Shown here: positions 8,193 to 60,310 of the stretch, piece by piece
Numbering within the stretch: the first letter of the stretch is position 1
Layout of the letters: the number at the start of each line of letters is the position of its first letter
Assembly: GCA_039798445.1 (NCBI GenBank)
Contig: JBDKFZ010000012.1
Location: 2,407 to 66,406 of the forward strand
Source of the DNA: Candidatus Parcubacteria bacterium
GTDB lineage: Bacteria > Patescibacteriota > Minisyncoccia > Phycocordibacterales > EsbW-18
Length of the DNA stretch: 64,000 nt
Direction of reading: 5' to 3'
Translations under genes and position numbers: made by a program
Notes under the pieces: generated by a model
Told to the model about the DNA's origin: nothing
The model's input: the letters and a program-made list of their open reading frames with translations, nothing else
The model's database searches: none

Positions 8193-11100
8193 CTATAAAG
8201 TGCCCGCTTGGGTTTTTATAAGCTCCTGCAAGAGCTGTTTAAGGAGCTCTATGAGCTTGAGCTGGAGCTGTTCAAGTGGCGTCCCCGTGGCTGGTGGCAT
8301 TGTTTCTCCACTCCCACCTCCCCCGCTTCGTCGGTGTGAACCACTACTTCCACCATCATCTTCCTCGTCTTCAGCTGGTGGAGTTTCTTCTTCATTTATT
8401 TCTTCCCAAACAAAAACATCTGCAACCCCATTAGTATCTCCAATTACAAGGTTTGTGTTTGAAGAATAAAAGGAAACAACCGTGCCACCATCAGAAACAT
8501 CTGGATATGAAACAGATGCGCCACCATCCGCAATACCAACACCTTCTGTTATCAATAATTCAACATCCTCTTCTCTGTCGTAACGATATAAATGGAGATC
8601 TTCTCCGCCCTCATCATACGCCGTATAAAAAACATAACGCCCATCTGATGACACGGCCACACGACCGCTCACATATCCATTGCCTGTAACATAGTCATCA
8701 CCAATAAGTTCTGTTGTACCGAGAGTACGGTCTCGAAGAAAGACTGCTCCGCTTCCATTTACTTCATCAGCAGTTAGGTTTGTTGAATCAGACCAAAACA
8801 CAACGTAGCGGCCATCTTCGGAAATAGCTGGGGTTGTCGCCGAAGCGTCACCAGTCACTTCATCACTATCTACATCGACTTGTTCCGTTGTGTCACTTTC
8901 ACGGTCAAACAAAAATACGTTTGTAAGAGAGGTGTCATTATCAAACCGAACATACACAATATATCGGCCGTCGTTAGACAGTATTAGTTCATCCTCATTT
9001 GCATTCAAAAAATACTGATCCTCAGTATCAAAAGCAACTTCTCGGGTAATCGCTTCCATAGTTTGGTCGTAGACAAAAATATCAGTTTTTCCGTTAGTAT
9101 CCCCCACAACAAGATTGGTGGCCTGCGACGTGAACACAATGTAGCGACCATCCTCAGATAGTGCACTTCGTGCAGAATCACTATCTCCCTCTTCGCCTCC
9201 TTCGTTTTTACTTACAAATGTAAGTTCTTCTGTGTCACGATCATAGACAAAAACATTACTTACTCCAACCATATTCTCAGGAAGGAGAAGCCCTGAAGTT
9301 GAAAATAGAACAAAACGTCCATCGCCCGATATCTCTGGCTCCCCTGCATTTTCAACATTTTCTCCTCCCTCCCCATTCAAACTTACGCGCTTAACACTGT
9401 TAGCCTGTCGATCATAGACAAAAATATCGTATGTGCCATTGGTATCATCAGGAACCAAATTTGTTGCGACTGATTCGAAGACAACATAGCGGCCGTCGCT
9501 TGAAATTTTTGGATTTTGCGAAGTTCCGTCTCCCTCTTCTGCCCCATCACTTATACTTACTCGTTCAAAATCAAACGTTATTGCTGGAGCGGCTATGAAG
9601 TTCCATGTTGTTTCGTCTGCAATACCAGCAAAAAGATTTCCGGATTCATCTTCAATCGCAGTTGCGTCTATGTGGAAGTAGTAGTCCGTTTCATTCTCGA
9701 GTGTAACTGTTGGAAAAAGAGATACGAGTGTACTATCAACCGTCACAGCATCTCCATCAGTCACATCGAATGTCTCAACAACACTGTCATCACTTGTCTT
9801 AAATAAAGTGATATTGCCTGTTCCGGCAACGACGGTTTCACTAAAATATAAATCGAACTGAGAAATATCTATTGCGACACCCGTTTCGTCGTCTCCCGGA
9901 GTAAAGCCAACGGATGTTGGCACCGCATCTGACGTGAAATTCCATGTTGTTTCATCAGAGATACCCACAAAACCGTTCCCAACCAAATCTTCAACGGCCC
10001 CTATATCAATAAGGAAATAATACTCTGTTCCCAACTCAAGCGTCACCGATGGATCTATGACAAGCGTGTCTGTTCCCGAAAGAGAAACCAGTCCTCCTGC
10101 AATATCTATTGTCTCCACGACAGAATCATCGGATGCATCGTACAAAACAATATCCCCTGTTGATGTCGCAATGTCTTGTTCAAACGTAATAGAAAATGTC
10201 GCATCAAGACCAATTTCAATAGCACCGTCTGCTGGATCAAATGTCGTAATGTTTGGTATATCAGGATACATATACACGCGACCGTTGTTTACGTTCGCTA
10301 TCATAAAGGAACCATCTGCATCCAGTGCAACTGCGTTCCACCCCTTGTCGGTAGCCCCTGCAGGTTGTTGTTCTGTCCAATTCTCACCACTATCGTCCGA
10401 TGTATAGAGACGACCACTGCTCACAGCGGCTATCAAATGTGAGCCATCAGAATCGGATGCAACAGTGATCCATGACTTATTAACAGCCCCCGCAGGTTGA
10501 CGCTCTGTCCAATCTACCCCTCCGTTACTTGAAGTGTAGAGACGACCATTGCTCACGCTGGCTATCAAATTGGAACCATCGGCATCAGAGGCAACACCCC
10601 ACCACAATGTATCAACATCTCCCGCAGGTTGACGCTCTATCCAATCTACCCCTCCGTTACTTGAAGTGTAGAGACGTCCACCAAGTACGCCGGCTATCAA
10701 GTTAGAACCATCGGCATCAGAATCTACCGATCGCCATTCTCCGTTAACATCTCCCGCAGGTTGACGCTCTATCCAATCTACCCCTCCGTTACTTGAAGTG
10801 TAGAGACGACCATTGGTGGCTATCCCCGCAATAAGATTTGAGCCATCAGCGTCAGAAGCGGCATCCCACCATGATTTTGTGACATCGCCCGCAGGTTGAC
10901 GCTCTGTCCAACTTACCCCTCCGTCATCAGATGTATAGAGACGGCTGTTTTGACCTCCCACAATAAGGTTCGAACCGTCATCATCAGAATCCAAAGCTCT
11001 CCATGAGCCATCAAAATTCCCAATGGGCTGACGTTGCGTCCATGTGATCCCTCCATTACTTGATGTCCAAAGTCTTCCACCACCACCAGAAGCTCCAACA

Positions 11101-11310: not shown

Positions 11311-11314
11311 CAAA

Positions 11315-11372: not shown

Positions 11373-14096
11373 TTATCTCTGTGTCATCAATTCCTGCAAG
11401 AGCTGTTTAAGGAGGTCAATCAGCTTAAGTTGAAGCTGGATGAGAACGTTAGTGTCCCCATGGAATGACGGCGGGTTGCTGATAGGCTTCCGGTGGGAAC
11501 CGCTTCCGCTTCCCCCATTGTCATCGTCTTCGCCCTCTTCTTCCTCTTCCACTTCCTCTCCTACTTCAAGATCAAATGTCGCAGTGACACTCTGTGCCGC
11601 ACTCATCGTGACAACACATGTTCCCGTACCTGAACATCCACCTCCTGACCATCCTATGAAATCAGAACCATCTGCAGCAACCGCAGTAAGAGTCACCTCG
11701 GTATCTGCCGCATAGTCTTCTGTACAATCAACACCACAGTTGATACCCGATGGGGCTGACGTCACAGTTCCCGAACCCGTGCCATCTTTTGAGACGGTGA
11801 GCGTTTCGGTGCCACCTACACCAGTGTTAAAAAAGAACAACGTTGAGGTTCCACTGTTAATGTCGTAATTACCGACATACAACTCCGTGTCGTCCGCAGC
11901 CAAACCAAGACCGTACACATTCGCTGTACCCACAGGATCAAACGCCGTTGCCGTACCATCTGTTGTGTCGAACGCAGCGAGATAATCACGCGACGTACCA
12001 CTGTTCACATCCGCAAAATCTCCACCGGCATAGAGGAGCGCATCATCTGAAGAGAGTTCAAGCTTGAAGACTAGAGCGTCGGGAACTGGTATAAATGCTG
12101 TTATGAGTGAATTGTCAGACAAGTCGATTCCCAACAAATACGGTGCACTAATTGCTCCGTAGCTGGAGAATTCTCCTCCGACGTATACATCACCTGTTGA
12201 TGTTGAAACTGCCACCGTGTACGAAATGCCGTCAAAGTTTGGATTAAAACTTGTCGCCAACCCCGTAGTTACGTTGAGTTCTCCAAAATACCCCCGGGCT
12301 TCAGAACCAATGTCTGTGAAGTCTCCTACAACATAGAGTGTTGTCTCATCTGTAGAAAGCGCGGTTGAGTGTACGTGTTGTCCATTTCCAGTTACGGTCG
12401 CATCAAACGCAGAAACGAGGGAGCCGTCCGAGGTATCAAGTTTGGCCAAAGCCGTTCTACTTCCTCCACCAATAGTGGTGAACGAACCTCCGGCGTAGAT
12501 ACTTGTTTCATCCGGAGACAGCACAAACGTTCTTATAGTACCATCAGCGTTGGGATCAAACGCCGTTACGGTACCCGCACCGACAGTGGTAAATGCTCCG
12601 GCATTATTTCTTGCTGTTGCCGTTGCGTCGAACGATGTGAAGTCACCACCCATGTAGAGAGTTCCATCATCATCTGAAAGAGCGAGTGCCCGCACGGTGC
12701 TATCTGCATCTGGGTCAAATGCTGTTACAGTACCCGCACCAACGGTGGTGAATGCCCCCACATAGTTTCTAAATGTTGCTCCACCGTCGAACGTTCCAAA
12801 ATCACCTCCCATGTAGAGAGTTCCTCCGTCCGAGGAAAGTGCGAGTGCGAATACTGTCGCGCCCGCACTAGGATCAAAAGCCGTTACTGAACCGTCTGTT
12901 GTGTCGAATGCCGCCACGTAATCTCTTACTGTCCCGTTTTCAACGGAGTTAAACTGACCACCGGCATAGAGTGTTGATCCATCTGGAGATAGTGCAAGTG
13001 CGAACACTGTTGCGTTATCGATATCAGGGTCAAATGCAGAATCTAAAACACCAGACGACGTGATATGTGCAAGGCGTGGTTGTGTTGTTGTTCCAACGTT
13101 CGTAAAACTTCCACCGATATACCATCCCCCCTCACCATCTGGAACAGATGCGTATATTGTTGCCCCCGGACCTCCTAATGTTGAAACCTTTGGATACGCA
13201 ACTGATGCTTGTGTTACTTCATCAAACGGAACCCCTTCACCAGCAAGTGTTCTGAACTCAAGAAAGTTACCACCTACATACAACGTAGTGCCGTCCGAAG
13301 AGCGCGCAAGAACCTGCCCCGCAGCATCGAGAGCAGCATTAAAATTGGTTATATCACCGGTATCACTATCAAATTCGGCTATGTACTCTTGGGGCAAAAG
13401 CCCATTTACGGTCAAAAAATCCCCAGCAGCATACACCGTTGATTCATCTACTGACAATTTAATACTCCATACCGTACTATCAACATCTGGATTAAAGTCA
13501 GTTGCAACACCATCCACGGTCGTAAACCCGGCAATATAGTTTCGAGCCGTCCCGCTATTTACGTCAGTAAATGAACCCCCAGCAAAAAGCGTTGCGTCAT
13601 CAGAAGAAAGCGCTATCGTGTTTACCTCGCCGTTTGGATTTGGATTAAATGCTGTGGCATTACCTGTTGTTGTATCTATTGCTGCAAGGTTAAATCGCTC
13701 ACTTTCGAGACATGCGGCCTCAAACTCCCCGCCGATACACCAAAATGACCCTCCCATGTACAACGTAGAGCCGTCCGAAGAGAGTGCTAGAGATGTCACA
13801 CCCCCGTTAAGGTTCGGATCAAACCCTCCTATCAATGAACCGTCACTCACATCAAACGCCGCAAGATAGTTTCGTGCGGTTGAAAGAGGTTCCCCAACAG
13901 TCGGCGTGATTTGGGTAAAATTACCACCCACGTAGAGCGTGGTGCCATCAGAAACGACAGCGGCAATAGATCCATCGAATTCATACCTACTTTTCACTGC
14001 GTCCGGAATTGAATCAAGCGCAGGTGCGGCATGTACGAAAGAAGGCACCGATGTGAACACGAAGAGAAGCGCGATGAGAAAGAATAGTTTTTTCAT
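11373..14096 (-). CDS. giant secreted surface protein P2 (about 907 aa): signal peptide, about 16 delta-60-like ~50-aa propeller repeats, shared C-terminal SHRKP/helix module (no peptidoglycan-binding domain)
   Basis: Likely start MKKLFFLIALLFVFTSVPSFVHA at 14096 (ORF track starts at 14135). Repeats follow the pattern LALSxDGxTLYxGGxFTxVNGxxRNYxAAFDTxxGxxTAFxPNxN. Tail reads EEEEEGEDDDNGGSGSGSHRKPISNPPSFHGDTNVLIQLQLKLIDLLKQLLQELMTQR. Confidence 0.8.
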   Translation of the reverse strand: MKKLFFLIALLFVFTSVPSFVHAAPALDSIPDAVKSRYEFDGSIAAVVSDGTTLYVGGNFTQITPTVGEPLSTARNYLAAFDVSDGSLIGGFDPNLNGGVTSLALSSDGSTLYMGGSFWCIGGEFEAACLESERFNLAAIDTTTGNATAFNPNPNGEVNTIALSSDDATLFAGGSFTDVNSGTARNYIAGFTTVDGVATDFNPDVDSTVWSIKLSVDESTVYAAGDFLTVNGLLPQEYIAEFDSDTGDITNFNAALDAAGQVLARSSDGTTLYVGGNFLEFRTLAGEGVPFDEVTQASVAYPKVSTLGGPGATIYASVPDGEGGWYIGGSFTNVGTTTQPRLAHITSSGVLDSAFDPDIDNATVFALALSPDGSTLYAGGQFNSVENGTVRDYVAAFDTTDGSVTAFDPSAGATVFALALSSDGGTLYMGGDFGTFDGGATFRNYVGAFTTVGAGTVTAFDPDADSTVRALALSDDDGTLYMGGDFTSFDATATARNNAGAFTTVGAGTVTAFDPNADGTIRTFVLSPDETSIYAGGSFTTIGGGSRTALAKLDTSDGSLVSAFDATVTGNGQHVHSTALSTDETTLYVVGDFTDIGSEARGYFGELNVTTGLATSFNPNFDGISYTVAVSTSTGDVYVGGEFSSYGAISAPYLLGIDLSDNSLITAFIPVPDALVFKLELSSDDALLYAGGDFADVNSGTSRDYLAAFDTTDGTATAFDPVGTANVYGLGLAADDTELYVGNYDINSGTSTLFFFNTGVGGTETLTVSKDGTGSGTVTSAPSGINCGVDCTEDYAADTEVTLTAVAADGSDFIGWSGGGCSGTGTCVVTMSAAQSVTATFDLEVGEEVEEEEEGEDDDNGGSGSGSHRKPISNPPSFHGDTNVLIQLQLKLIDLLKQLLQELMTQR

Positions 14097-14184: not shown

Positions 14185-17100
14185 CTACAAACCGTTGATA
14201 TACGCCCTCGTCACTGGTCCGAAGTATCCAGCAGCTGGAGTGATACCGACAGATGCTTGGTATTCAGCAAGAGCTGCTTGGGTGAGAGGGCCGAAGAAGC
14301 CTGTTGCTCCAACTGCTGCAAGAGCTTGGGCTTGTGGTCCCTTGTTTTGAGCAATGAGGAAGAGTTGGAGTGCTGTTACGTCTGGTCCCTTACTATTGAG
14401 ATCGAGGTCGCGGGTGTAGATATCTGATGTGGTTGATGGGATGCCGAGAAGTGAAGCCAGTATCGCCTTGAGTTCTTCGATGCGGGCTTGGAGAGACTCG
14501 AGGAGAGTTGTGTCGTCACGGAACGACGGAGGATTGACGAGAGGCTTTCGGTGACTTCCGCTTCTGGTTTCCCCATCATCTTCAACTTCGTCCACGTCTT
14601 CTGAATCATAAATACCAAACCAACCAGACGATCCTCCTACATATAGTTCATCGCCATCAGGGTGAAGGGCCAACGCATACATGTAGTAGGCATCTGTGGG
14701 ATTGAAATCAAGAACACTGGCATTAGACGTCTGAATTGCAGCGAGATAATCACGCAACGCCCCTCCTTCAGAATTAAAACTTCCACCTGCATAGAGGACC
14801 TCATCGTCAGATGTGAGAGCGAGAGAATACACAGCACCGCCTTCCGCGAAATCTGGGTCAAAATCGAGAAGCCCAAGATCGGACGTTGAGAATGCTGCAA
14901 GACCAGCACGTGCACCACCCCCAGTTTCTAACACACGCAACACCCCTCCTCCTGCAAAGATATTTCCATTTACGGGACCACTGATGGTATATACATCGTA
15001 ACCAAAACTAGTATTAAGACGGGCACTGAATTCTGTGAGTGTTGCGTCACTCGTATTGAGTGCTACGAGACCGGCAACATTCTCACCACTTATGTTTGTA
15101 AAACCACCACCCGCATACAGAACGGACTCGTCAGAAGAAAGACTTAATGCATACACCGTAGAGTTGGCGTCGGGGGCAAAAGGCATTGCAAGACCGTCGT
15201 CTGTGTCGATTGCAGCAAGACGATAGCGCTCGCTTCCAAGACACACTTCCTCTTCGTCATCATACCCACCAACACAGTAGAAATCTCCTCCTGCAAACAA
15301 AACACTGTCATCATCCGAGAGTTCCAGTGAGTAGACGCTACTGTTCATATCAGGATTAAACGCAGTTGCAACGCTCGTTGTTTCTGTTGTATCAAGTGCT
15401 GCGAGATAGTTTCTATCCGCATTACATACTTCCAGACCCGAATCATATTCGACACAAGAGAAACTTCCTCCCACATACAATGTCAAATCATCAGAAGAAA
15501 GAGCAAGACTTGTGGCACCGTTATTTAGAGAGGGCGCAAAGTCTGTTGCAACTCCATCTGAGGTGTTGAATCCAGCGACGTGACCGCGATCTGTTGCGCC
15601 ATTAACTACTAGGAAGTTCCCCGCTGCGTAGAGTGTTGCCTCATCTGAACTTAGTTGAAGTGCGTATACGTCGCCATTCATGTCGGGATCAAAATTGGTC
15701 AGTGATCCATCACTCGTATCGAATGCGGCAAGACGATTTCTTGTTGTTGAGTTGATCGTTGTGAATTCTCCACCCGCGTAAAGCGTTTCTCCATCAGAAG
15801 AAAGTGCGAGGGCCCGAACTGTTCCCCCCTCAGAACCGAAGTCCGGCTCGAAGGTAGGATCGATAGTCATATCAGGAAGAATGTGTGCAATGCGCGAGTC
15901 CCATACTCCTCCATCTATACGGTTGAAGGACCCACCAGCATACCAACCACCGTTGCCGTCCGGGATAGATGCGTGGACTGTGCTTGCATTCGTCGAAAAA
16001 ATCGACTGTGAATCAACAAATGATCCTGTTGTGGCGTCAAAAATACCTCCCTCACCGATATTTATAAGGCCTGGTGTAAATTCAGTAAACTCACCTCCCG
16101 CATATAACGTCTCTCCGTCAGAGGAGAGTGTGAGGGCCCGAACCGTATCATCCGCTGGAAATTCTGTAGAAAGAAGGGTGGAACCGTCAGTGGTATCAAG
16201 TGCGACCAGTTTTTCTGTGAAGTCTCCACCAGCGTACAAACTGTTGCCATCAGACGAGAGTTTAAGTGCGCGAACCTCACCATCAAGTGAAGGAGTGAAC
16301 GCAATCTCCGCTCCTGTACCCGCGTCCATTTTTGCTACGTAATAAACGTCCCCGCCTACTCCCCATTCCTCAAAATCTCCACCGGCGTACACCGTTGAAC
16401 CATCAGAAGAGACAACAAGAGAATAAACCGTATATCCACCCCCCATATTGGGATTAAAATCCGTCATGACTCCATCAATTGTAGTGACCGCCGCAAGACT
16501 GTAACGATTACCTCCGATTCCATTTATTCCATTAAAAGCACCTCCAATATAGAGAGTCCCAGCATCTGGTGAGAGAGCGAGAGCATGCACCGACTGATCT
16601 ACTGAGACCACGTTTGGATTAAAATCAGTTAGTTCATACGTAGCAAGATCGATTGCAGCGACTTCACTTCGAGAAACACGATCTGCTTGTGTCATTGAAC
16701 CCCCTGCAAGCAACTGTCCATTCACAGAAGAAAGCGCGTAAACTGTACCATCGTAAAATCCACCACCAAAATCCTCTGCGGTCGCCGTGCCGTCAGAAAC
16801 TGCGAGTGCTGCGATTCTATTGCGTGTCGTTCCTCCATTAACCGCTGTAAATGACCCACCTGCGTAAAGTGTGGTCTCATCAGAAGAAAGTGCGAGTGAA
16901 TACACAAAACCAGCACCCACGTTTGGGTCAAATGCCTCTACAAGTGAGCCGTCGGTCGTATCAACTGCAGCAATTTTGTTACGTGTCGTGCCAGAATTAA
17001 CATCTGTAAACACTCCTCCTATATAGAGTGTCGAATCATCGTCTGAAAGAGCCATCGCAAGAATGTCATCATTAACATTTGGATCAAAGACAAGCTGACT

Positions 17101-17979: not shown

Positions 17980-18007
17980 AGTTTCAGATGTTAATTTCAA
18001 TCCTCAA

Positions 18008-36314: not shown

Positions 36315-36317
36315 ATT

Positions 36318-38141: not shown

Positions 38142-38200
38142 TTGGATTTAGGGTTTAGTGCTTCTTTCGGATTTCGTGCTTCGTGCTTCGGATTTCATCC
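38037..38200. repeat. palindromic repeat cluster (direct and inverted copies of cgaaatccgaa, tandem cgtgctt x2) spanning the pilin start and the pilC stop
   Basis: gaagcacgaaatccgaatctcgaaatccgaaac ... ttggatttagggtttagtgcttctttcggatttcgtgcttcgtgcttcggatttc. Two ~55-nt arms, imperfectly complementary, around a ~26-nt loop that contains the pilin ATG. Confidence 0.7.
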
Positions 38201-38201
38201 C

Positions 38202-39410: not shown

Positions 39411-39436
39411 TACGAAAATTGTAGCACGAGAAGCTA

Positions 39437-39548
39437 TTAGCAATTGGCAATTAAAAAACTCCAAATGTATGGCGCAGAGCGGAGTGGATCCGGGTTTTTC
39501 CGAGCCTGCGAGGACAAAACGCGGACCACGCAGCGAAGGTCATACCGC
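39437..39548 (-). repeat. repeat element A2 (inverted copy of A1) in the pilB-pilC intergenic region
   Basis: Aligns to the reverse complement of 26093..26201. Begins with gcaattggcaatt and ends near ggaccacgcagcgaagg. Confidence 0.85.
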
Positions 39549-39555
39549 GAGGTCC

Positions 39556-41310: not shown

Positions 41311-41376
41311 ATCTTTGCGCTTTATTGTATCAGTTCTACAAAAAAGAGAACGTGAATAAAAACGAGATATGAAAAA

Positions 41377-41406
41377 GGCCTGTGCACCGTAGTGGTACAC
41401 AGAGCC
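41377..41406 (-). terminator. rho-independent terminator after the GC-rich hypothetical gene, upstream of pilB
   Basis: ggcctgtgcacc-gtagt-ggtacacagagcc followed by tttttcat on the minus strand. Confidence 0.55.
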
Positions 41407-41494
41407 TCCATCGTACAACCGATGGTGTGTTGGGCAGTAGTGCCCGAAACAAAGCGAGAACGTTCACGCGGGATGCAAGGGTCGGAGCCTCGTA

Positions 41495-46637: not shown

Positions 46638-49600
46638 CTAAAGACTATTTACGTATGCCCTCGTTACCGGCCCAAAGAATCCTACAGCAGGAGTGATACC
46701 GACAGGTGCTTGGTATTCAGCCAAAGCTGCTTGTGTAAGAGGTCCAAAGAAGCCTGTGGCTCCGTTTGAGGCGAGCGATTGTGCTGCGGGTCCCTTGTTC
46801 TGTGTCATGAGGAAGAGCTGGAGCTGGAGGACATCGTCCCCTTGTGCACCGAGATCGAGGTCACGGGTGTAGAGGTTGGATGTTGTCGTTGGAGTGCCGA
46901 GGAATGCGAGCATTGCTGGTGACGGGGTGCCGCCTTGTGCGATGAATTGGGTAATGAGGGTGCGGAGAAGGGTGAGAAGGTCGGAGCTTCCGCCTGTTGT
47001 TCCTGAACCACCGCCGCGACGATGAGATGAGCTTCCTCCCCCGTCTTCTTCCTCTTCATCATCGGCTGGCGGGGTTTCTTCTTCAACAACCTCTTCCCAA
47101 ACGAAGACGTCCGTCGAACTATTTGTATCACCCGTAACAAGGTTTGTTGCGTCAGAAACAAAACCTATGATTAAACCGTCATTTGAAATTGCTGGGCTGT
47201 CTGAATATCCACTCCCATCAGAGTTCGACGAGCCCTCAGTTATGTACAGCAATGTGTCTGTTGTACGGTCATATCGATAGACACCCGCATAGTCCCCCTC
47301 TCCATCATCCGTAGTTTGACCGAACGCAACATAGCGACCATCGGCAGAAATGACAGGTGCGTAAGAGGAGTCAGCGTCATCATTTGTAATACGTTCCATC
47401 ACTCCTGTCTCCCTATCAAGCACGAATACATCTTGAACGCCCTCTGTATCATCAGAAACTAGATTGTCTGCGTTGGATGAAAACGCAACATAGCGACCAT
47501 CGGCAGAAATTGCCACACCTCCTCCCGCGATATCACTATTTCCCTCCTCGTCCAAGTCATTTTTATCAACCATCTCCACAGTATCCGCATCTCTGTCATA
47601 CACATACAGGTGGTTATATCCTTCAATGGCTTCCGGCACAAGCAGACCACTCGTACTAAAGGTCACAAAGTTCCCGTTGCCTGATATTCGGACGGCACCT
47701 TGAACGTTTTCTGTGTTTTCTCCTCCTTCATCATCAAGACTCACCCGTTCAATAGTATCGGTGTCACGATCGTAGACAAAAGCATCACTTCTGCTATTTG
47801 TATCATCCGTAACAAGGTTTGTCGCATCGGAGTAAAAAGCGACATAACGACCATCGTTAGAAAGAATAGGATCATATGAAGCCCCATCCCCTTCCTGACC
47901 AAGGTCATTGAGACTTACGCGCTCAACCGTATCAGTGTCACGATCGTACACAAAAACATCGAAGGTATCATTGGTGTCATCGGGGATAAGGTTCGTCGTA
48001 GCTGAACGAAAAGCTACATACCTACCGTCAGATGAGATGCTCGGGGTCTGTGAATTACTGTCTCCTTCCTCACCAAGGTCGCTCACACTTACCCGTTCAA
48101 TGGTGTCTAAATCACGATCGTAGACAAAGACATCGTCCCATCCGTTTGTGTCATCCGAAACAAGATTGGTTGCTCCTGAACTAAAGACGACATACCTGCC
48201 ATCTGTCGAAAGGGAAACATTGAATCCTGTGGAATCGCCCTCTTCACCTTCGTTGTTTACGTTCACACGTTCAAAATCAAGTGCGGGTGGTGCTGGAACA
48301 TCTTGTACCGTAAAGTTCCATGTTGTTTCGTCCGCAATTCCAACATACGAGTTACCAGTACCATCCACAAAAGCTCCCTCGTCAATTAGCAGGTAATACG
48401 CCGTGGCATATTCAAGATCGACGTCTTGATATATGTAGACGTTTTCATCCTCGGCCTCAAGAGCATCGGCATCCGTCACGTCAAAAGTGGCGACAGTGCT
48501 GTCATCAGAAACTTTTTTAAGGGTTATGTTTCCTGTTCCAACAACGACATCTTGATCAAAAACAATCGTTGGGGTACCTCCCGAAAAAACAGTTATCGAA
48601 ACGTCTTCAGCATCATCTGCGGGTGAAAACGTTTCGACCACAGGAGGTGCATCTGTCGTAAAACTCCACTGTGTTTCATCCGAAATCCCAACAAACGGAG
48701 CGCCCCCATCATCTTCGATTGCTCCTGTATCAATGAGCACGTAATATTCTGTTGCCTCTTCGAGATCCGCATCTAAATCAATCTCCAACGTTGTAGTATC
48801 GGAGAGCGTAGCTTTTGGACCGGCAACATCTACTGTTTCGACCAGACTATCGTCGCTTGCTTTGTGAATTGTTATATTTCCCGTTGTTGTCGCAATGTCT
48901 TTATTAAAAACAAGAGTGAGGTTTGTGCCTACAACAACCTCTCTGGCGTTGTCTGAAGGTGTAAAACTGTCTAATACAATTGGCTCTGGTGTTACATACA
49001 ACCCACCCTCGACAGTAGCAACAATAAGATTCGAGCCGTCGGCGTCTGAAGCAACAGCCTGCCAAGCATAGCTATTGACACCTCCCGGCTGTTCTTCAAA
49101 CCACGTATCTCCACCGTCGTCAGAAGAATGTAGACTTCCTCCATTTACCCCCGCAAGCAAATTTGTACCAGTATCATCGGAAGCAACTGACCCCCAACCT
49201 TCAGTCGGAAAACCTGTGGGTTGACGCTCCATCCAGTTTGCACCACCATCACTTGATGTATATACAAGAGTGTTTCCTCCGGCAACGATGAGATTCGAAC
49301 CATCGGCGTCGGAGGCAACCTTGTCCCAGTTTTTTTCGGTGTCACCGGCAGGTCGACGCTCTACCCATGTATCTCCTCCATCGTCGGAGACATAAATAAA
49401 CCCATTAAACGTACCGATAATGAGCACAGAACCATCCGCATCTGAATCAACAGATATGATATTTATCTGTGTCGAAGTTGCAGTATGTTCTTCCCATGTA
49501 TCTCCGCCGTCGAAAGACGTATAGATAGTACTAGTTGCGCTTGTAACAGCGGCGAGATTCGAGCCATCGGCGTCTGAAGCAATACCCGTCCAATATTCAA

Positions 49601-49970: not shown

Positions 49971-49998
49971 GTAATGGGAGCTAAAAACAATATCAAAA

Positions 49999-50010
49999 GT
50001 ATACCAAAAA
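49999..50010 (-). promoter_or_regulatory. extended -10 box TGGTATACT upstream of P4
   Basis: Minus strand reads gggtttttGGTATACTtttgatatt, about 30 nt upstream of ATG 49970. Confidence 0.4.
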
Positions 50011-50043
50011 CCCCTCAACTCTTTGGTTTTTGGGGATTACTCT

Positions 50044-53000
50044 CTAGAGTCCATTAATATGCGCCCTCGTCACTGGTCCAAAGTACCCTGCTGCTGGGGT
50101 GATGCCGACAGATAGCTGGTATTCAGCAAGAGCCGCTTGGGTGAGAGGTCCAAAAAGGCCTGTGGCTCCAACGACTGCAAGTGCTTGAGCCTGTGGTCCT
50201 TTGTTTTGAGCGATGAGGAAGAGTTGGAGTGCTGTTACGTCAGAGCCTTCGCTGTTGATGTCGAGATCGCGGGTGTATGTGCCTCCTGTAGTTGCTGGAG
50301 CACCAAGGAATGCGAGCATCGCTGGTGATGGGGTGCCACCTTGTGCGATGAATTGGGTGATGAGGGAGCGGAGGAGAGCAAGAAGATCTTGTGATGTGCC
50401 GCCTGAAGCAGGAGCAACTCCACGTCCTCGGTGAGAAGAGCTGCTGCCTCCCCCACTGTCGCCGTTGTCGTCATCATCGTCATCGTCACCAGAAGGAATC
50501 TCGTCTTCAATCAGTGTGTAGATAGCCAGTCCACCCGTGAAGGCTCCGCCGGCATAGAGTTCAGACTGGTCTGGCGAAAGAATGAGAGTGTTAACAGAAC
50601 TATCGATATCATCCACAGAAGGGCTGAAATCGCTTACCTCACCCGTCGCACTATTTACACTAGCGATTCTGAGTCGATCCAAACCATCGATTTGAGTGAA
50701 GTCACCACCAACGTAAAGAGTTGATCCATCGGAACTCAAATCGAGCCCTCGCACAGTGCTGTCGGGGTTAGGAGCAAAAGCGGTGGCAATACTATCGGCA
50801 ATGGTAAACTCTGCGAGATAATTACGTGTGGCATCTCCCCCGTTTACATCTCCAAAGTCTCCACCGGCAAAAACGGTTGATTCATCAAGAGAGAGCTTGA
50901 GAGCCCTCACTGTGCCATCAACATCCGGATTGAATGCTGTTACTGCACCATCTGCAGTTGTAAATGATGCAAGACGGCTGCGAGAGGCGGCACCGTTGTT
51001 GACTGTCGTGAACGCTCCTCCGGCATAGAGAACTGATTCGTCTGCAGAAAGCTCGAGAGAATTCACTGTCGAGCTCATATTCGGGTTGAATGCCGTCACA
51101 ACACCGTCCACCGTTGTGAATGCAGCGATACGCCTGCGCGATGTGCCTCCATTCACCGTCTGGAAGCTTCCTCCTGCATAGAGGATGCTGTCATCAGAAG
51201 AGAGCTTGAGGGCGTTCACCGTGCTGGCCATATTCGGATTAAACGCTGTTACAACTCCGTCCACGGTCGTAAACGCAGCAAGACGGTTTCGAGTTGTTCC
51301 AAGACACCCCCCTTCACCATCAAATATCCCATTTACACAGATAAACGTCCCGCCAACATAGAGCGTTAGTCCATCAGAAGAGAGTGCCAGCGCATTAACG
51401 GTATTGTTTATATCTGGATCAAAAGGCAAAAGAGTGTACGACGAGAGATCAATTGCGGCTACGTTATGACGAGTAGAAGCACCCGCCGCGGTGAAACTAC
51501 CACCGATATAAACGACACCATCCGCGACATCCGCCGCAGCCACACCTCCGTTCAGAGCAGGATCAAAATCTGTAACATTACTTGTAGCTAAATCAAACTC
51601 AGCAAATCCAGCTCGAGGTATATCACCATTCACCGTAGTCAGCTCTCCTACCGCATACAGCGTCAAACCATCCGAAGAAAAATCCATTCCACTTACTCTC
51701 CCTCCAGTAATATCAGGATCGAAATCAGTAGCGATACTAGTTGTTACATCAACAGCCGCAACTCCATTTCGGATTGTCCCCCCATTCACATCTCCAAACG
51801 TACCTCCAACATAAAGCGTCTCTCCATCAGGAGAAAGGAGAAGAGAGTACACACTGCCGTTAACGTTGGGGTCAAAATCAGTAGCGATACCCGTTGTAGC
51901 ATCAACAGCTGCGACACCGTTCCGCTCGACATATTCTGAAAGACTAAATGATCCACCGATATACAGTGCTGTACCATCTACGGCAATCTCAGAAATTCCT
52001 GAGTTTGAACCTGTAAAACCCGGGTCAAAATCAGTGACTAACGATGTTGTCGTATCAAACGCCGCGATACCAAGTCGCTCAACGTCATCATTTACCATGC
52101 TTATATTTCCTCCGACATACACCAGAGAACCGTCTTCCGAAAGGGCAATACTTGTTACAGAGTCGAACTCACTAATACCGGCGTCAAAACTCGTTACCGT
52201 TCCTGTCGTTGCATCGAATGCAGCAAGACGATTGCGTGTAGTTCCGCCATTCACTGTACTGAAATACCCTCCCGCATACACCACCGATCCATCTACGGCT
52301 ATTTCGTTAATCGTATCATTAACATTGGGGTTGAAAGCAGTTACCTCTCCTGTCGTTGCATCAAACGATGCAAATCTGTTGCGTGTTGTGTCTCCATTCA
52401 CTTCAGTAAAATCTCCGCTGATGTATACGACTGAACCTGCGAGCACCATACTACTACCAGCTTGGAATGAGTCTCCAAGATCTGGATCAAAAGAAGTCGC
52501 AACGCTGGTATCTGTGTCAAAAGCCGCTGCTCCATGTCGAGTCGTTGCTCCGTTTACCGTCTGGAAGTTTCCTGTCACGTACAAAGTTCCATCATCGGGA
52601 GAAAGTGCAATAGCATTAGCGCCCCCTTCTATGTTTGGATCAAAGTCTGTAGCAACACCTGTTTCTGTGTAGAAAGCGGCAACTTTATTTCGAGTGGTTG
52701 CGCCCCCGTTAACCGTAGAGAAGTATCCTCCCGCGTACAAAATCTCTCCATCCGAAGAAAGCGCCAATGAAATCACTGAGCTATCCAAATCTGGATCAAA
52801 GTTGGGGTCGACAGTGCCATCTGCGAGTATGTGGGCTAGACGATTACGCGCGGTGTTTTGAGCGGTCAAATTTGTAAAGTTTCCTCCGACATACCAACCG
52901 CCGTCTCCATCAGAAACAGCGACCGCCGGGTTGCCCCCATTGACTGTCGGCAACAAACTTTTTTGTTCGGCAGTCGTATCAAAAATGAATTCTTGAGCAT

Positions 53001-55470: not shown

Positions 55471-55501
55471 AAAATAAATGGAGGTTAATTACAATATCAA
55501 A

Positions 55502-55515
55502 AGTATACCAAAAAA
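55502..55515 (-). promoter_or_regulatory. extended -10 box TGGTATACT upstream of P5
   Basis: Minus strand reads gggttttttGGTATACTtttgatattg, about 32 nt upstream of ATG 55470. Confidence 0.4.
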
Positions 55516-55547
55516 CCCTCGACTGTCTGAGTTTTTTGGGGATTCTG

Positions 55548-57587
55548 TTAGAGAGTATTGAAATGCCCTCGTGTTACTGGTCCAAAATAGCCTGTTGCTG
55601 GGAAAATACCCACAGATGCTTGGAATTCAGCAAGAGCTGCTTGTGTAAGAGATCCAAAGAAGCCTGTTGCTCCGTTTGCTGCCAGTGCTTGAGCCTGCGG
55701 GCCCTTCTTTTGCTGTATAAGAGCTGCTTGAAGAGCGGTAACGTCTGAACCTGAAGAACCAATATCAAGATCACGGGTATATGTACCTGTTGTTGGTGTA
55801 GTCGTAGGAAGTGTCGATACATCGAGTGCAAGAACAGTGAGCATACCCTGCGAAGGCACCCCGCCGAGGAGGATGTACTGCGAAATAAGATCTTTGAGCT
55901 TGATGATAATCGTTTGATATGTGCTTCCTCCAATGTGAGGCGGCGCTGTCTGACCGTCTTCAGACGAGGTATCGCTTTTTCTACTGCTACTTCCTCCACC
56001 ACCACCGCCACCTCCCCCACCACTATCTTCTTCCTCTTCTTCCTCACAGGCTGAAGTCGTCACTGTTCGGTGGGAACCATATGAAAGCCCTCCTAGCACA
56101 TTCGATGCCCACGCCTTGAAGTGGTACGTCGTCTCACACTCAAGAGAAGAGAGCGTCGTAGAAAAGGTTCCCGTCGAAAAAGTGCCTTCTTCGGTCGTCG
56201 TCGCCCCATACGAGACCGACAGACCATAGGCAAATCCACGGAGGTTCGGATCTTGGCCACCCGTCGTAGCGATATTGCCGTTGAGCGTCACTTCGGTCTG
56301 TCCGATCCCCGATGCGGGGACCGTTATCACACCGGGAGCATCGGCTTCGGGCACATCTTCGAGTTCGACGGTAATGGTTCCCGTACCCGCAGTAGAAAGC
56401 CACCAATCATCCATCACCTCAATCACAAGCTCGAATGATGGGTTCGTTTCAAAATCGATGGCTTCTTCAGTGTTGACGCTAATGGCCCCCGTGTCCGCAT
56501 CGATTGCGAATGCACTATCTGTGTTACCCGAGAGAATGGAGTACGTTAGGGTGTTCCCGCCCAATGCGTCAGTTGCTGTTGTTGTCCCCACAAATGTTCC
56601 ATTGGCACTGTTCTCCATGAGGGAGAACGTCTCATCGGTAACTTCTGGTGTCTCGTTGAACACATCAAAACAGGAAAGATCATACGTAGACATCTGATAC
56701 CCGCCATCATTACCAAGCGTGGCAATTGAGCTGTTGATCGCATCTATATACGCTCCGTAGAAAGGACCGTAGCCAACTCCTGTTACCGTGAGCGCGAGAA
56801 TCGGCTGATTATTGATGAAGAAAAAACCCGGCTGTCCGGAATCCCCGTTGACTTGCGCTTCATAGAAATCAAAGCGGGTCGACGGTGCGTCGGGAGTAAA
56901 GTGATTAAAGTACACATGCTCATTAGCTAAACCTATTGCATAATTAATTTCCTGAATGCTTGCTTTTGCCTCCTGATCAAACAAGAGGAATGGGAACTGT
57001 GGTTCTGAAAGATAACGATCCAACTCCAATTTCGAAATCGCAGGATAAAAAGCTATCGAAGGTGGGACGTCAGAATCAAGCACACCGAGCTGTACATCTT
57101 CTCCTGCATCGGGCTGAAACACCACTGACATCTGCGCTTGAAGCGTACGCGTTGCAACAGAGTTATCATCCGCAACAAAAACAACGGTTGATCCGTTAGT
57201 TATTGGAAAATGTTTTGCAAAAACAATGTGACGAGGAGAAATAAGAACCCCAGCACGTCTAAAGTCCAAGTTGGAGTTCCATGGAGACGCACCTGACAAA
57301 TCCAGTGGAGCATCTCCCTCCGTTATCCATGCCGTTGAGCTTCGTGTCCACGGGTCTGTCGCATTTCCTCTGGTTGAGAAGATTTTCTTGGTGCTGTCGT
57401 TGGCTGTCAGACCATCAATACGATAATCGACCTCATGGTTCAGTTCTGCGACAAGATCCGTCGAAAAAAGATCTTCACAACTTGAAGGCACAAATACCTC
57501 AGCAAAAATGACATGTGGAACAAGGAAACCACTCAGCGCGATCGTGCCCACAAGGAGTCTTTGTGCCTTTAAAAAGAAGGTGGGCAT
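55548..57587 (-). CDS. secreted surface protein P6 (679 aa): signal peptide, trypsin-like serine-peptidase domain, cadherin-like/Ig-like region, poly-Gly linker, peptidoglycan-binding domain
   Basis: His in VLISPRHIVFAKHF, Asp in DVQLGVLDSDV, Ser in VNGDSGQPGF (a GDSGxP motif). Tail EEEEEDSGGGGGGGGGGSSSRKSD...IIIKLKDLISQYILLGGVPSQGMLTVLA...YTRDLDIGSSGSDVTALQAALIQQKKGPQAQALAANGATGFFGSLTQAALAEFQASVGIFPATGYFGPVTRGHFNTL. Confidence 0.7.
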   Translation of the reverse strand: MPTFFLKAQRLLVGTIALSGFLVPHVIFAEVFVPSSCEDLFSTDLVAELNHEVDYRIDGLTANDSTKKIFSTRGNATDPWTRSSTAWITEGDAPLDLSGASPWNSNLDFRRAGVLISPRHIVFAKHFPITNGSTVVFVADDNSVATRTLQAQMSVVFQPDAGEDVQLGVLDSDVPPSIAFYPAISKLELDRYLSEPQFPFLLFDQEAKASIQEINYAIGLANEHVYFNHFTPDAPSTRFDFYEAQVNGDSGQPGFFFINNQPILALTVTGVGYGPFYGAYIDAINSSIATLGNDGGYQMSTYDLSCFDVFNETPEVTDETFSLMENSANGTFVGTTTATDALGGNTLTYSILSGNTDSAFAIDADTGAISVNTEEAIDFETNPSFELVIEVMDDWWLSTAGTGTITVELEDVPEADAPGVITVPASGIGQTEVTLNGNIATTGGQDPNLRGFAYGLSVSYGATTTEEGTFSTGTFSTTLSSLECETTYHFKAWASNVLGGLSYGSHRTVTTSACEEEEEEDSGGGGGGGGGGSSSRKSDTSSEDGQTAPPHIGGSTYQTIIIKLKDLISQYILLGGVPSQGMLTVLALDVSTLPTTTPTTGTYTRDLDIGSSGSDVTALQAALIQQKKGPQAQALAANGATGFFGSLTQAALAEFQASVGIFPATGYFGPVTRGHFNTL

Positions 57588-57602
57588 GACTTCAGAGCCC
57601 TC

Positions 57603-57614
57603 AGTATAGCAAAA
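57603..57614 (-). promoter_or_regulatory. extended -10-like box TGCTATACT upstream of P6
   Basis: Minus strand reads ggttttGCTATACTgagggc, 18 nt upstream of ATG 57587, directly after the P7 terminator hairpin. Confidence 0.35.
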
Positions 57615-57634
57615 CCACGGATTTCCGTGGTTTT
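57611..57634 (-). terminator. rho-independent terminator after P7
   Basis: aaaaccacgg-atttc-cgtggtttt. Confidence 0.65.
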
Positions 57635-57658
57635 GTGAGGATTGGTCGAAGCCAACGT

Positions 57659-60310
57659 CTACAACCCGTTCACGTACGCTCTCGTTACCGGCCCAAAGAA
57701 TCCTACGGCAGGTGTGATGCCGACAGATGCTTGGTATTCAACCAAAGCTGCTTGTGTCAGTGGTCCAAAAAAGCCCGTGGCACCGTTTGCTGCGAGTGAT
57801 TGTGCTGCAGGGCCTTTGTTTTGTGCGATGAGGAAGAGTTGGAGTTGGAGGACGTCGTCACCTTGTGAGCCAATGTCGAGATCACGGGTGTAAAGGTTAG
57901 ATGTTGTTGGAGTGCCGAGGAATGCGAGCATCGCTGGTGACGGGGTGCCGCCTTGTGCGATGAACTCTACAATTAAACTCCTCAATGTTTCAAAGAGATC
58001 GGTGTCCTCGCGGAATGACGGCGGGTTACTGATGGGTTTTCGATGGGTGCTACCTCCCCCACCACCGCCGCCGCTGTTATCGTCATCTGGCTCTTCCTCA
58101 TCTTCAACACCTTCGTCCCACACAAACACATCACGATCATCATTTGTATCGCTTTCAACAAGATCAGTTGCGTCTGAAGCAAAGGCGACAACATGACCGT
58201 CTCCTGAAACAGAACCTCCATTTCCACCGACGAGTGAATTCTCTGTTATGTGAAGAAGTGTATCTGATTCTCTATCGTAACGGAAAATGTTGTTCGTCTG
58301 TCCCTCTCCACCATCTGTAGATCTTGTAAAAACAACATACCGCCCATCTGAAGAAATGCTCGGTTTACCGGTGCTCTCCTCATCATCGTCAATCAATCGA
58401 TCAATAGTGTCGGTGTCGCGATCATAGACAAAAACTCCCCATTTGGTACTGGTGTCTCCTGAAACAAGATTTGTGGCATCAGAGGCAAAAGCTATATAAC
58501 GCCCATCAGATGAGAGAGCAATTTCCTGTCTCGCGTCGTTGTTTCCTTCCACCCCTTCGTCTGACACGCTCACACGTTCGATGGTTTCTCCCACACGATC
58601 GTACACAAACACATCATTCCTACCGTTCGTGTCGTCCACAACAAGGTCCGTAGAAGCTGAGACAAGAACGACATGTGTGCCATCTTTCGAGATTACCCCG
58701 AGGCGAGATTGCCCATCAGATCCCGACGTGATGTTGGTTTCTGTGTCGAGCTCTCGATCGTGGAGAATGATGTCATATCTCCCATCGCTATCTAGGCGTT
58801 GCGTATAGACCACATAGCGTCCATCATCAGAAATAGATGGCGACTCAAAGGAGTCTCCAGACACCCCATCTGTATTTACCTGTTCAATACTACCGAGCGT
58901 CCTGTCATAGAGAAAAATGTCGACTGAACCAGATATGTTGTCCGTTAAGTTCTCCGCAGCTGACGAAAAAACAACATACCTACCGTCTGAAGAAATATAC
59001 GGACTGATCGAGTGTCCATCCCCTTCTTCTCCTGCTATATTCGCACTCGCGAGTTCGATGGTATCCGTATCGCGATCGTAGACGAAGATATCCCGGCTGT
59101 CATTGGTATCTTCCAAAACAAGATTCGTAGCGTCTGACTCAAAGACGATATACCTACCATCTTCAGAAAGCTGTGGGGGTAGGTTCGCCGAGTCACCGTC
59201 CGCCTCCTCCCCCTCATCGTTTACACTCACGCGCTCAAATTCAAACGTTGGGGGTGGTAGCGTTGTAAAATTCCATGTCGTTTCGTCAGCGATACCCGTA
59301 AATCCAACGATTGCTGTGCTATCGATGGTAAAATAATAATCCGTACTCCTCTCCAAATCGACTGCTGGATGCAATGTCAACGTAGCGTTAGAAATAGTGA
59401 CCTCCTCTTCGACGCTCACATCAAACGTATCTACAACGCTGTCATCACTCGCTTTGTAGAGAGTTATATTCCCTGTTCCACCATAAATATTCTTATCAAA
59501 TTCTATTGTATAACTATCTAAAACAATCGAGACACCTGTTTCACCATCGGCAGGATTAAGCGTCACAATCGCTGGGGCGGCCTCCGTGGTGAAATTCCAT
59601 GTTGTTTCGTCAGTGATGCCGGCGAAAGGAACTATCGCACCCACATCAATGAGAATGTAGTATTCCGTTGCTGGTTCAAAGAGATCTAGGCGTGAAAAAT
59701 ACACTCCTTGATTTTCTACTGTCACCTCTTCGTCATTAGTTATGTCCCACGTTTCAACAATACTGTCATCGCTCGCTTTATAAAGCGTTATATTGCCCGT
59801 GTCCGTGTAAACCAGCCCATCAAAATAAATAGAAACGGGATCCTCCGGATTCAAGGAAGCATCTATCGCATCGTCCCCTGGTGAAAGTGAGTCGATTCCG
59901 CGTGGTGTATCATATGCATCTGTTGTAAAGCTCCAAGTCGTTTCGTCAGAAATACCTGCAAAGTCAACTATTGCCCCTGCGTCGATTTGAAAATAATATT
60001 CTGTACTCGTTGCAAGATCAGTATCGATGAGTACATAGACAACCACTCCAGAAAAATTTGCCTCCTCAGGGTCAGTGACATCGAGCGTCTCGACTACGCT
60101 ATCATCGCTCGCTTTGTAGAGCGTTATGTTTCCTGTTCCCGCAACTATTGCTTCATCAAAAATAAGATAATATGCCTGTTGGTCATTGAATATTGTCGTA
60201 TTAACTGCATCATCTTCAGGAGACAGGTTTGTTACTACGGCCGCCTGCGCAAAAAGGGGCAGGCAAGCCGAAATAAGAAAAAGAAACGACGCTAGGAGGA
60301 ATCTCCTCAT
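57659..60310 (-). CDS. giant secreted surface protein P7 (883 aa): signal peptide, about 4 Big_5-like Ig domains, about 7 PD40-like repeats, shared C-terminal module, peptidoglycan-binding domain
   Basis: MRRFLLASFLFLISACLPLFAQA signal, Ig units ending ETTWSFTT / ETTWNFTT. Tail GGGGGGGSTHRKPISNPPSFREDTDLFETLRSLIVEFIAQGGTPSPAMLAFLG...YTRDLDIGSQGDDVLQLQLFLIAQNKGPAAQSLAANGATGFFGPLTQAALVEYQASVGITPAVGFFGPVTRAYVNGL. Confidence 0.85.
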   Translation of the reverse strand: MRRFLLASFLFLISACLPLFAQAAVVTNLSPEDDAVNTTIFNDQQAYYLIFDEAIVAGTGNITLYKASDDSVVETLDVTDPEEANFSGVVVYVLIDTDLATSTEYYFQIDAGAIVDFAGISDETTWSFTTDAYDTPRGIDSLSPGDDAIDASLNPEDPVSIYFDGLVYTDTGNITLYKASDDSIVETWDITNDEEVTVENQGVYFSRLDLFEPATEYYILIDVGAIVPFAGITDETTWNFTTEAAPAIVTLNPADGETGVSIVLDSYTIEFDKNIYGGTGNITLYKASDDSVVDTFDVSVEEEVTISNATLTLHPAVDLERSTDYYFTIDSTAIVGFTGIADETTWNFTTLPPPTFEFERVSVNDEGEEADGDSANLPPQLSEDGRYIVFESDATNLVLEDTNDSRDIFVYDRDTDTIELASANIAGEEGDGHSISPYISSDGRYVVFSSAAENLTDNISGSVDIFLYDRTLGSIEQVNTDGVSGDSFESPSISDDGRYVVYTQRLDSDGRYDIILHDRELDTETNITSGSDGQSRLGVISKDGTHVVLVSASTDLVVDDTNGRNDVFVYDRVGETIERVSVSDEGVEGNNDARQEIALSSDGRYIAFASDATNLVSGDTSTKWGVFVYDRDTDTIDRLIDDDEESTGKPSISSDGRYVVFTRSTDGGEGQTNNIFRYDRESDTLLHITENSLVGGNGGSVSGDGHVVAFASDATDLVESDTNDDRDVFVWDEGVEDEEEPDDDNSGGGGGGGSTHRKPISNPPSFREDTDLFETLRSLIVEFIAQGGTPSPAMLAFLGTPTTSNLYTRDLDIGSQGDDVLQLQLFLIAQNKGPAAQSLAANGATGFFGPLTQAALVEYQASVGITPAVGFFGPVTRAYVNGL

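Follow-up and report, generated by a model that had tools for sequence, protein, structure and literature searches.

A conserved acidic, Gly/Ser and SHR[KR] junction ahead of a predicted peptidoglycan-binding anchor in large surface proteins of a Candidatus Parcubacteria bacterium

Seven large proteins with a shared C-terminal cassette

A stretch of 64,000 nucleotides (nt) from a Candidatus Parcubacteria bacterium (contig JBDKFZ010000012.1, positions 2,407 to 66,406), referred to here in its full length as the window, was analysed with attention to a C-terminal cassette that recurs in its large, putatively surface-exposed proteins. Seven minus-strand open reading frames (ORFs), P1 to P7, encode large proteins of 679–1808 amino acids (aa) and are distributed in two clusters, P1–P3 at 8193-18000 and P4–P7 at 46638-60310. 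A preliminary description of the window had called these proteins giant; they are large, but the word is generous for such sizes. Each ORF has a signal-peptide-like start, and their positions are as follows.

P1: 8193-11267, minus strand
P2: 11373-14135, minus strand
P3: 14185-18000, minus strand
P4: 46638-50018, minus strand
P5: 50044-55470, minus strand
P6: 55548-57587, minus strand
P7: 57659-60310, minus strand

Pfam analysis of the passenger regions revealed BNR/sortilin-like and PD40 propellers together with Big_5 domains in P1, P4 and P7, Rax2/DUF5122 propellers in P2, P3 and P5, and a cadherin domain in P6. An exact-product look-up found no record of the P7 protein.

The C-terminal cassette consists, in order, of an acidic run, a Gly/Ser hinge, a short Ser-His-Arg-Lys/Arg motif, a helix and usually a peptidoglycan-binding domain (PGBD). 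The strings reported in the preliminary description as shared by all seven C-termini could be found in the translations exactly as quoted, and the region 57659-58080 to which it referred is the C-terminal end of P7 and covers the P7 module. The parts of the P7 cassette and the corresponding regions of its paralogues are listed below; structural evidence is from AlphaFold2 (AF2), with the predicted local distance difference test (pLDDT) as its confidence measure.

57662..58126, minus strand: P7 cassette of 155 aa, comprising acidic run, Gly/Ser run, THRK, variant-A peptide, helical hairpin and PGBD (translation, alignments, AF2)
58076..58117, minus strand: P7 acidic run, DEGVEDEEEPDDDN (sequence; AF2 pLDDT ~42)
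58049..58075, minus strand: P7 Gly/Ser hinge, SGGGGGGGS (sequence)
58037..58048, minus strand: P7 T-H-R-K motif, whose Arg is the nearly invariant column R29 of a 14-sequence alignment (sequence, alignment)
58001..58036, minus strand: P7 variant-A peptide, PISNPPSFREDT (sequence comparison)
57920..58003, minus strand: P7 helical hairpin, DLFETLRSLIVEFIAQ-GGTP-SPAMLAFLG (AF2 helices 42-57 and 64-69, pLDDT 70-76)
57662..57892, minus strand: P7 PGBD, PG_binding_1-like, 77 aa (Pfam 18.6 bits, below the 23-bit cut-off; AF2; Foldseek)
46641..47105, minus strand: P4 cassette, with SHRR at 47016-47027 (variant B, Gly/Ser after the motif), hairpin, and PGBD at 46641-46871
50047..50514, minus strand: P5 cassette, with SHRG(RG) at 50425-50436, hairpin, and PGBD at 50047-50277
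55551..56066, minus strand: P6 cassette, with Gly10-SSS-RK at 55977-55988 (SSRK, without His), divergent hairpin, and PGBD at 55551-55781
14188..14634, minus strand: P3 cassette, with SHRK at 14545-14556 (variant A), single long helix LLESLQARIEELKAILASLLG, and PGBD at 14188-14418
11376..11576, minus strand: P2 truncated cassette, with acidic run, GSGSGSHRK (SHRK at 11487-11498), variant-A peptide, helix LQLKLIDLLKQLLQEL and stop; no PGBD
8196..8417, minus strand: P1 truncated cassette, with acidic run, GGSSGSHRR (SHRR at 8328-8339), Gly/Ser, helix LQLKLIELLKQLLQEL and stop; no PGBD

Two kinds of sequence follow the motif. Variant A, found in P2, P3 and P7, has the consensus KP[IL]xNPPSF[RH]xDT, and the P7 form of this peptide also occurs in the homologues P0001 and P0036, with weaker forms in P0069 and P0050. 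Variant B, found in P1, P4, P5 and P6, is Gly/Ser-rich.

The AF2 model of the P7 cassette, which was built on a shallow 14-sequence alignment, had a pLDDT of about 40 over residues 1-40 (acidic run, Gly/Ser run, THRK and PISNPPSFRED). These were followed by a helix at 42-57, a turn at GGTP and a short second helix at 64-69 (pLDDT 70-76), and then by a three-helix PGBD with a pLDDT of about 90. The helices described earlier as amphipathic were thus predicted by AF2, but their amphipathicity was weakly supported: the hydrophobic moment exceeded that of shuffled sequences in P1 only (p ~0.014), with p values of 0.14-0.30 in the other proteins.

The peptidoglycan-binding domain and the helix-only tails

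The Pfam model PG_binding_1 (PF01471) matched P6 with 28.0 bits, above the gathering score of 23 bits, while P3 (21.4 bits), P5 (21.0 bits) and P7 (18.6 bits) fell below it and P4 was not listed at E<=0.01. The five PGBDs are 69-91% identical to each other, the P7 domain being 74% identical to that of P6, and can therefore be regarded as one family. A Foldseek search with the P7 cassette model returned as top matches the N-terminal domains of SleC (9h68) and SleB (6tci) and the peptidoglycan-binding domain of the AP3 endolysin (5nm7). The match to 6tci had a template modelling score of 0.67 on the target, a root-mean-square deviation of 2.9 and a probability of 0.93. The Foldseek E-values were weak (0.13-0.9), probably in part since half of the query is low-confidence linker. 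Taken together, the profile scores, mutual identities and predicted structure indicate that the domain is a PG_binding_1 homologue with a small helical-bundle fold.

The sub-modules do not group the paralogues in the same way. A hairpin is present in P4–P7, a single long helix in P3 and a short tail helix in P1 and P2; by PGBD subtype, P3 pairs with P5 (91% identical) and P4 with P7 (90% identical). This incongruent grouping of peptide variant, helix type and PGBD subtype points to recombination among the paralogues, and the codon divergence described below indicates that such exchanges were not recent.

The preliminary description placed a PGBD at the end of all seven proteins, which was found to be right for P3–P7 but not for P1 and P2. 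The latter two end directly after a shared Leu-rich helix, LQLKLIxLLKQLLQEL, and the next genes lie within about 30-105 nt of the stop codons, leaving no space for a PGBD downstream. The orthologue of P2 in a related metagenome-assembled genome (MAG) (P0036 / L002; 1458 aa) has the PGBD that P2 is without. Relatives of the helix-only P2 tail could not be detected in the index searched, where no candidate shared the required words.

Conservation of the junction motif

The tetrad S-H-R-[KR] had been described as invariant, but P7 reads THRK, P5 reads SHRG and P6 reads SSRK, without His. Across an alignment of 14 sequences that included homologues, conservation of 90% or more was confined to the Arg and a single Leu of the helix. 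An Arg-anchored consensus, [DE]n-(N/D)-G3-10-[GS]-S-H-R-[RK]-[SP], could be derived, variable beyond position +3; some of its columns are fixed by the selection pattern, His not among them.

A six-frame scan of the window with a strict pattern of a Gly/Ser run plus basic residues gave six of the P1–P7 linkers and one site within a P5 propeller blade. The P3 linker, GETRSGSHRK, falls outside this pattern. Among homologues, the top 150 and the first 15 were sampled, of which 126 offer 100 or more residues ahead of their first PGBD. The strict pattern was present in 20 of these 126 pre-PGBD linkers, compared with 0.55 +/- 0.76 in composition-preserving shuffles (500 shuffles, maximum 4), an enrichment of approximately 36-fold. 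As a control, only 2 of 513 other 100-residue windows of the same proteins contained it. In 24 of 25 cases, the motif lay 44-66 residues ahead of the PGBD and 120-143 residues from the C-terminus. A scan of the six-frame ORFs of 49 related loci (253,000 residues) for the motif in its acidic/helix context outside PGBD proteins gave only spurious out-of-frame matches.

More distant relatives were examined through 33 diverged full cassettes, selected as profile matches that start at or before profile position 26 and so include the linker. Fifteen of them carry [GST]-[HYF]-[RNQ]-[KRG], 20 carry either that or a Gly/Ser run with a basic pair, and 13 have neither, which indicates that the motif is not essential for anchoring.

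At the nucleotide level, the motif is written with different codons in different paralogues (TCACACCGACGA, TCCCACCGGAAG, AGTCACCGAAAG, TCTCATCGTCGC and others), and where the residues of two paralogues agree across the cassette, their codons agree in only 50-65% of cases. These differences suggest purifying selection at the protein level and not a DNA element or recent gene conversion, and the latter was ruled out as the source of the similarity on the same codon identity. As judged from the sequence comparison, conservation of the motif is protein-level and old.

It is highly improbable that the cassette is exchanged with the help of a DNA-level feature (a purine-rich tract, slippery Gly codons or a hotspot of recombination) and that the peptide motif merely results from it. 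The purine fraction of the linkers is raised (0.59-0.76 against gene means of 0.50-0.54) and the sub-module phylogenies are incongruent, as such a feature would have it; however, the purine tracts are interrupted, their richness follows from the codons of Asp/Glu/Gly/Ser(AGY)/Arg/Lys, and the differing motif codons leave no conserved nucleotide word. The DNA-level element is therefore largely refuted.

A further explanation is that the linker is a functionless low-complexity spacer, in which the motif merely goes back to the common ancestor of a cassette that was duplicated and shuffled, with no selection on the motif itself. This would agree with the disorder predicted by AF2, with a Gly run that varies from G3 to G10 in the window and reaches G11 in the L001 orthologue, with the 13 motif-less cassettes and with the mosaic sub-modules, a sign of shuffling. 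We consider it improbable, though less so than the DNA-level explanation: the motif is retained by 50%-identity cluster representatives and in several lineages of Patescibacteria while the linker residues around it are not conserved, paralogues have diverged well at synonymous sites, and both the enrichment over shuffles and the constrained distance between motif and PGBD speak against a passive remnant.

Relatives and distribution of the cassette

When 1.84 billion cluster representatives were searched exhaustively with the profile, 15,710 relatives emerged, 296 of them at E<1e-30. In a species-level genome collection, the closest relatives were uncultured Patescibacteria / Paceibacteria-type MAGs, the nearest being JAUPUE01 'erpe_2018 ... 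bin.85' with 72% identity over the module. The motif, which the preliminary description had reported from the seven proteins of the window, was found to be kept in other Patescibacteria MAGs; its absence from homologues in related genomes, which that description had named as grounds for refutation, was thus not observed. Of the genome loci examined, 45 of 49 were from Patescibacteria or unclassified MAGs, and the four weakest were from Clostridiales, Thermoleophilaceae and a cyanobacterium. The cassette is essentially restricted to Patescibacteria.

Many relatives from Paceibacteria have the Leu/Gln-rich helix and PGBD at the N-terminus, directly after the signal peptide, with a passenger of 500-1100 residues downstream. 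These proteins, of 660-1300 aa, were encoded at loci L008, L011, L015, L016, L020, L026, L029, L030, L035 and L039 (at about 3700-4300 in each). The acid/Gly/basic motif is absent from them, and their PGBD is followed by a Thr/Gly/Pro-rich or acidic linker. The helix and PGBD can thus be viewed as a portable anchor, while the acid/Gly/SHR[KR] element belongs to the C-terminal junction. A family of small secreted proteins of about 270 aa also carries the C-terminal cassette, with SYRK, SFRK, SRRR or SHRR as its motif.

A second recurrent pre-PGBD element was observed after basic residues, GGS-V-x-x-R-[VI]-x-N-L-x-x-x-G-(K/N)-x-x-x-A, resembling a short helix-turn-helix. It occurs in P0041, P0079, P0087, P0106, P0121, P0141 and P0146 and at loci L012 and L013, and seems to replace the LLxLLRxLIxQFIAQGG hairpin. 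Many of the closest PGBD relatives (P0027-P0032, P0037, P0040 and others) are M23-type peptidases (GNTGNA..HLHFEI), which have two copies of this PGBD subtype with a similar helix, FLxxAxxxGVxLPPxI, ahead.

Comparison with known sorting signals

The preliminary description had drawn an analogy with LPXTG and PEP-CTERM signals while stating that no recognised sorting cassette was matched. The second statement was borne out, as neither the full proteins nor, even at E<=10, the isolated modules gave an NCBIfam match. The cassette resembles the LPXTG/sortase, PEP-CTERM/exosortase and GlyGly-CTERM/rhombosortase systems in occupying the C-terminal region of secreted surface proteins, in occurring in many paralogues with different passengers, in following a low-complexity region, and in including basic residues. 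The analogy itself was not supported, however, since the motif lies 120-143 residues from the C-terminus and a folded domain comes after it, and since a signature penta- or tripeptide and a terminal hydrophobic transmembrane segment with a basic tail are all missing. The proteins end with ...GPVTRAYVNGL, or with ...LLQELMTQR in P1 and P2, with no LPXTG-like pentapeptide, terminal transmembrane helix or Arg-rich tail. Given these absent features and the lack of a model match, the cassette was not filed as a sorting signal.

Covalent attachment could nevertheless be envisaged, in which a transpeptidase (sortase-like, L,D-transpeptidase-like or other) would link the passenger to peptidoglycan at a true sorting or ligation signal. 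Braun's lipoprotein (Lpp) carries a C-terminal Tyr-Arg-Lys, and the [HYF]-R-[KR] forms of the motif (SYRK, SFRK, SHRK) have a superficial likeness to it. Lpp-type attachment by an L,D-transpeptidase needs a free C-terminal Lys (..YRK-COOH), whereas the motif here is internal and the Lys is not conserved, the second basic residue being Arg in P1 and P4 (SHRR) and Gly in P5 (SHRG). Sortases are common in genomes of the candidate phyla radiation (CPR) (PMC6744442), which would favour such a mechanism; yet no gene for a sortase, exosortase, rhombosortase, YkuD protein or dedicated protease was co-located among the Pfam-scanned genes of the window, which is part of the genome, and no sortase or protease gene lay beside the cassette genes at two other loci (P0165, P0005). 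Moreover, with a folded wall-binding domain downstream of the motif, a covalent anchor would be redundant. This explanation is accordingly very unlikely.

The P6 protease domain and possible processing at the motif

P6 carries a further domain outside its cassette:

56652..57500, minus strand: P6 N-terminal chymotrypsin-fold serine-protease-like domain (AF2, Foldseek, family alignment, hhalign)

The trypsin-like domain ascribed to P6 in the preliminary description was confirmed by fold, with an intact His/Asp/Ser triad, although it is invisible to Pfam: residues 30-312 gave no Pfam family, Trypsin and Trypsin_2 included, and no PDB sequence match at E<=10. In an alignment of 38 family members, H97, D135 and D220-S221-G222 are invariant, and the P6 sequence itself contains a GDSGQP motif. 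The AF2 model had a pLDDT of 93.7 and a predicted template modelling score of 0.91, and Foldseek returned 755 PDB matches at E<=0.001, with factor IXa, factor D, plasminogen, chymotrypsin and trypsin among the top matches at probability 1.00. Comparison by hhalign paired the His57 region of trypsin with H97 and the Asp102 region with D135. At the position of trypsin Asp189, P6 has Ala, with Glu one residue earlier (a sequence reading in ungapped register with GDSG). On the alignment and model, the P6 N-terminal domain is a divergent, Pfam-less, serine-protease-like family with the double beta-barrel chymotrypsin fold. Among the 50 relatives listed, the precomputed Pfam annotation showed PF01471 in none; some come from outside Patescibacteria (Pseudohongiellaceae, Leptolyngbyaceae), and relatives in other phyla carry dockerin or cadherin domains. 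The protease family is therefore not tied to the cassette.

The presence of this domain brings in processing or shedding at the motif. A wall-associated serine protease, with a P6-type enzyme as the candidate, would cut after the Arg (SHR|K, SHR|R, SHR|G) so that the passenger is freed while the helix and PGBD stay in the wall; GGGSTHRKPISNPPSF, GGGSTHRKPISNPPSFREDT and GGSSSHRRGGGSG would be the putative substrate peptides of P6. The Arg is the sole nearly invariant linker residue and the residue after it is variable (K/R/G), which would suit a P1 position of cleavage, and the site lies within a segment predicted to be disordered and accessible. The P6 gene stands beside P5 and P7, its product combines the chymotrypsin fold and invariant His/Asp/Ser with the cassette itself, and the closest MAG (L001) has a P6 orthologue whose linker is the same. 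Trypsin-type and kexin/furin dibasic sites likewise show an exposed Arg-[Arg/Lys] in a flexible segment between functional parts, and here a trypsin-fold paralogue is nearby. Against this, no convertase (S8) gene was seen, and several lineages replace the Arg by Asn or Gln but keep His-x-Lys-Pro (SHNKP, GHQKP). A Lys-Pro bond, which follows in variant A, is a poor trypsin-type site. With the Ala that the ungapped register places opposite Asp189, Arg/Lys specificity of P6 is not indicated, and neither the 50 listed relatives nor the two other loci link such a protease to the cassette. Processing of this kind seems unlikely on balance, though it deserves more weight than the passive spacer.

Other genes of the window

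The window also contains a 23S-tRNA(Ile)-5S cluster, ribosomal protein and EF-G genes, type IV pilus genes, ComEC and DsbB. Within 1552-5475 on the minus strand, the 23S rRNA match covers 3364 nt against a 2925-nt model, which gives about 440 nt of insertion(s). A tRNA-Ile(GAT) lies between the 23S and 5S genes, and no 16S gene adjoins the 23S gene. At 5935-7389 on the plus strand, a shikimate-dehydrogenase-like protein is encoded with an additional N-terminal region of about 180 aa that has no Pfam match. A small bacterial RRM_1 protein (Pfam E 8.6e-23) is encoded at 7805-8161 on the minus strand, directly downstream of P1. The type IV pilus gene cluster (35706-41418, minus strand) is located between the two surface-protein gene clusters and includes a PilB-like ATPase, a PilC-like platform protein, a pilin with an N-methylation motif and a 607-aa CarboxypepD_reg protein.

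Proposed role of the cassette

The reading that we favour, by a modest measure, is that the module forms the junction and anchor end of a portable, non-covalent wall-display cassette of Patescibacteria (Paceibacteria-type) surface proteins, with a charge-segregated tether. The proteins would be exported by the Sec pathway, as their N-terminal signal peptides suggest, and the C-terminal PG_binding_1 domain would bind peptidoglycan non-covalently. The helix or hairpin ahead of it may extend the anchor or mediate oligomerisation. The spacer, predicted to be disordered, could by its composition serve as a tether in which the acidic block points outward, the Gly/Ser run acts as a hinge, and the basic [ST]-H-R-[KR] patch with its Ser/Thr/Pro/Gly sequence is wall-proximal, so that the adhesin-like passenger (propellers, Big_5, cadherin or protease) would be held away from the wall. 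The SHR[KR] element would then represent a lineage-specific short linear motif at the acid/base boundary, recognised by a wall polymer, a partner or an enzyme.

Comparable logic is known from the non-covalent surface-display modules with spacers of Gram-positive bacteria, namely LysM, SLH, CWB2, GW and choline-binding repeats (PMC5817068), which, like the cassette, combine a passenger exported by Sec with a low-complexity spacer near the wall and a wall-binding module at the C-terminus. The binding domain differs, and a charge-segregated spacer with a fixed short motif was not described in the searched full-text literature, the coverage of which was limited; a description of this motif or cassette was likewise found neither there nor in curated models. 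Hydrolases with PG_binding_1 domains (SleB, SleC and the Burkholderia AP3 endolysin) share the domain family and fold, with presumed non-covalent targeting to peptidoglycan. In contrast to these, the domain here forms the very C-terminal end of large proteins with adhesin-like or protease passengers, where a Leu-rich helix or hairpin and a conserved acid/Gly/SHR[KR] spacer come before it, and belongs to a cassette essentially confined to Patescibacteria, two paralogues of which keep the spacer and helix without the domain.

Three points weigh against the wall-display reading. P1 and P2 keep the motif and helix without a PGBD, so their own cassette, as read from the sequence, cannot anchor them by peptidoglycan binding; they may piggy-back on anchored paralogues through the helix, which could keep them associated. 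The low AF2 confidence of the linker is weak evidence for disorder, given the shallow alignment. Finally, an electrostatic tether alone needs neither the fixed [ST]-His-Arg order nor the 12-residue variant-A peptide PISNPPSF[RH]xDT.

The fixed Ser-His-Arg order and the 12-residue peptide look like a specific recognition site for a partner. Carried further, [ST]-His-Arg-[Lys/Arg] together with KP[IL]xNPPxF[HR]xDT would be a Patescibacteria-specific hinge site at which an envelope enzyme, P6 being a candidate, cleaves or transfers the passenger, with P1 and P2 as variants that associate via the helix and do not themselves bind the wall. We regard this extended form as doubtful, on a par with processing by a P6-type protease.

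Patescibacteria (CPR) are mostly uncultured episymbionts whose surface proteins presumably mediate host contact, and how such proteins are attached to the envelope is little understood. Non-covalent wall anchors at the C-terminus and PG_binding_1 domains are well known, while the curated models and literature searched contained no junction motif of the acid/Gly/SHR[KR] kind, conserved, widespread in Patescibacteria and set within a constrained distance of the anchor. The cassette appears to be a common means of displaying propellers, Ig-like and cadherin domains and a protease in Paceibacteria-type genomes, and its motif can serve as a simple marker, at sequence level, for recognising surface-displayed proteins in CPR metagenomes. 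Should the linker be a mere spacer, the result would be a useful annotation with no new mechanism. A motif at a fixed position in a variable tether may serve as a mutable handle for studying anchoring versus shedding, and the recognition-site reading, if true, would add a new processing or maturation signal for the surface proteins of these episymbionts.

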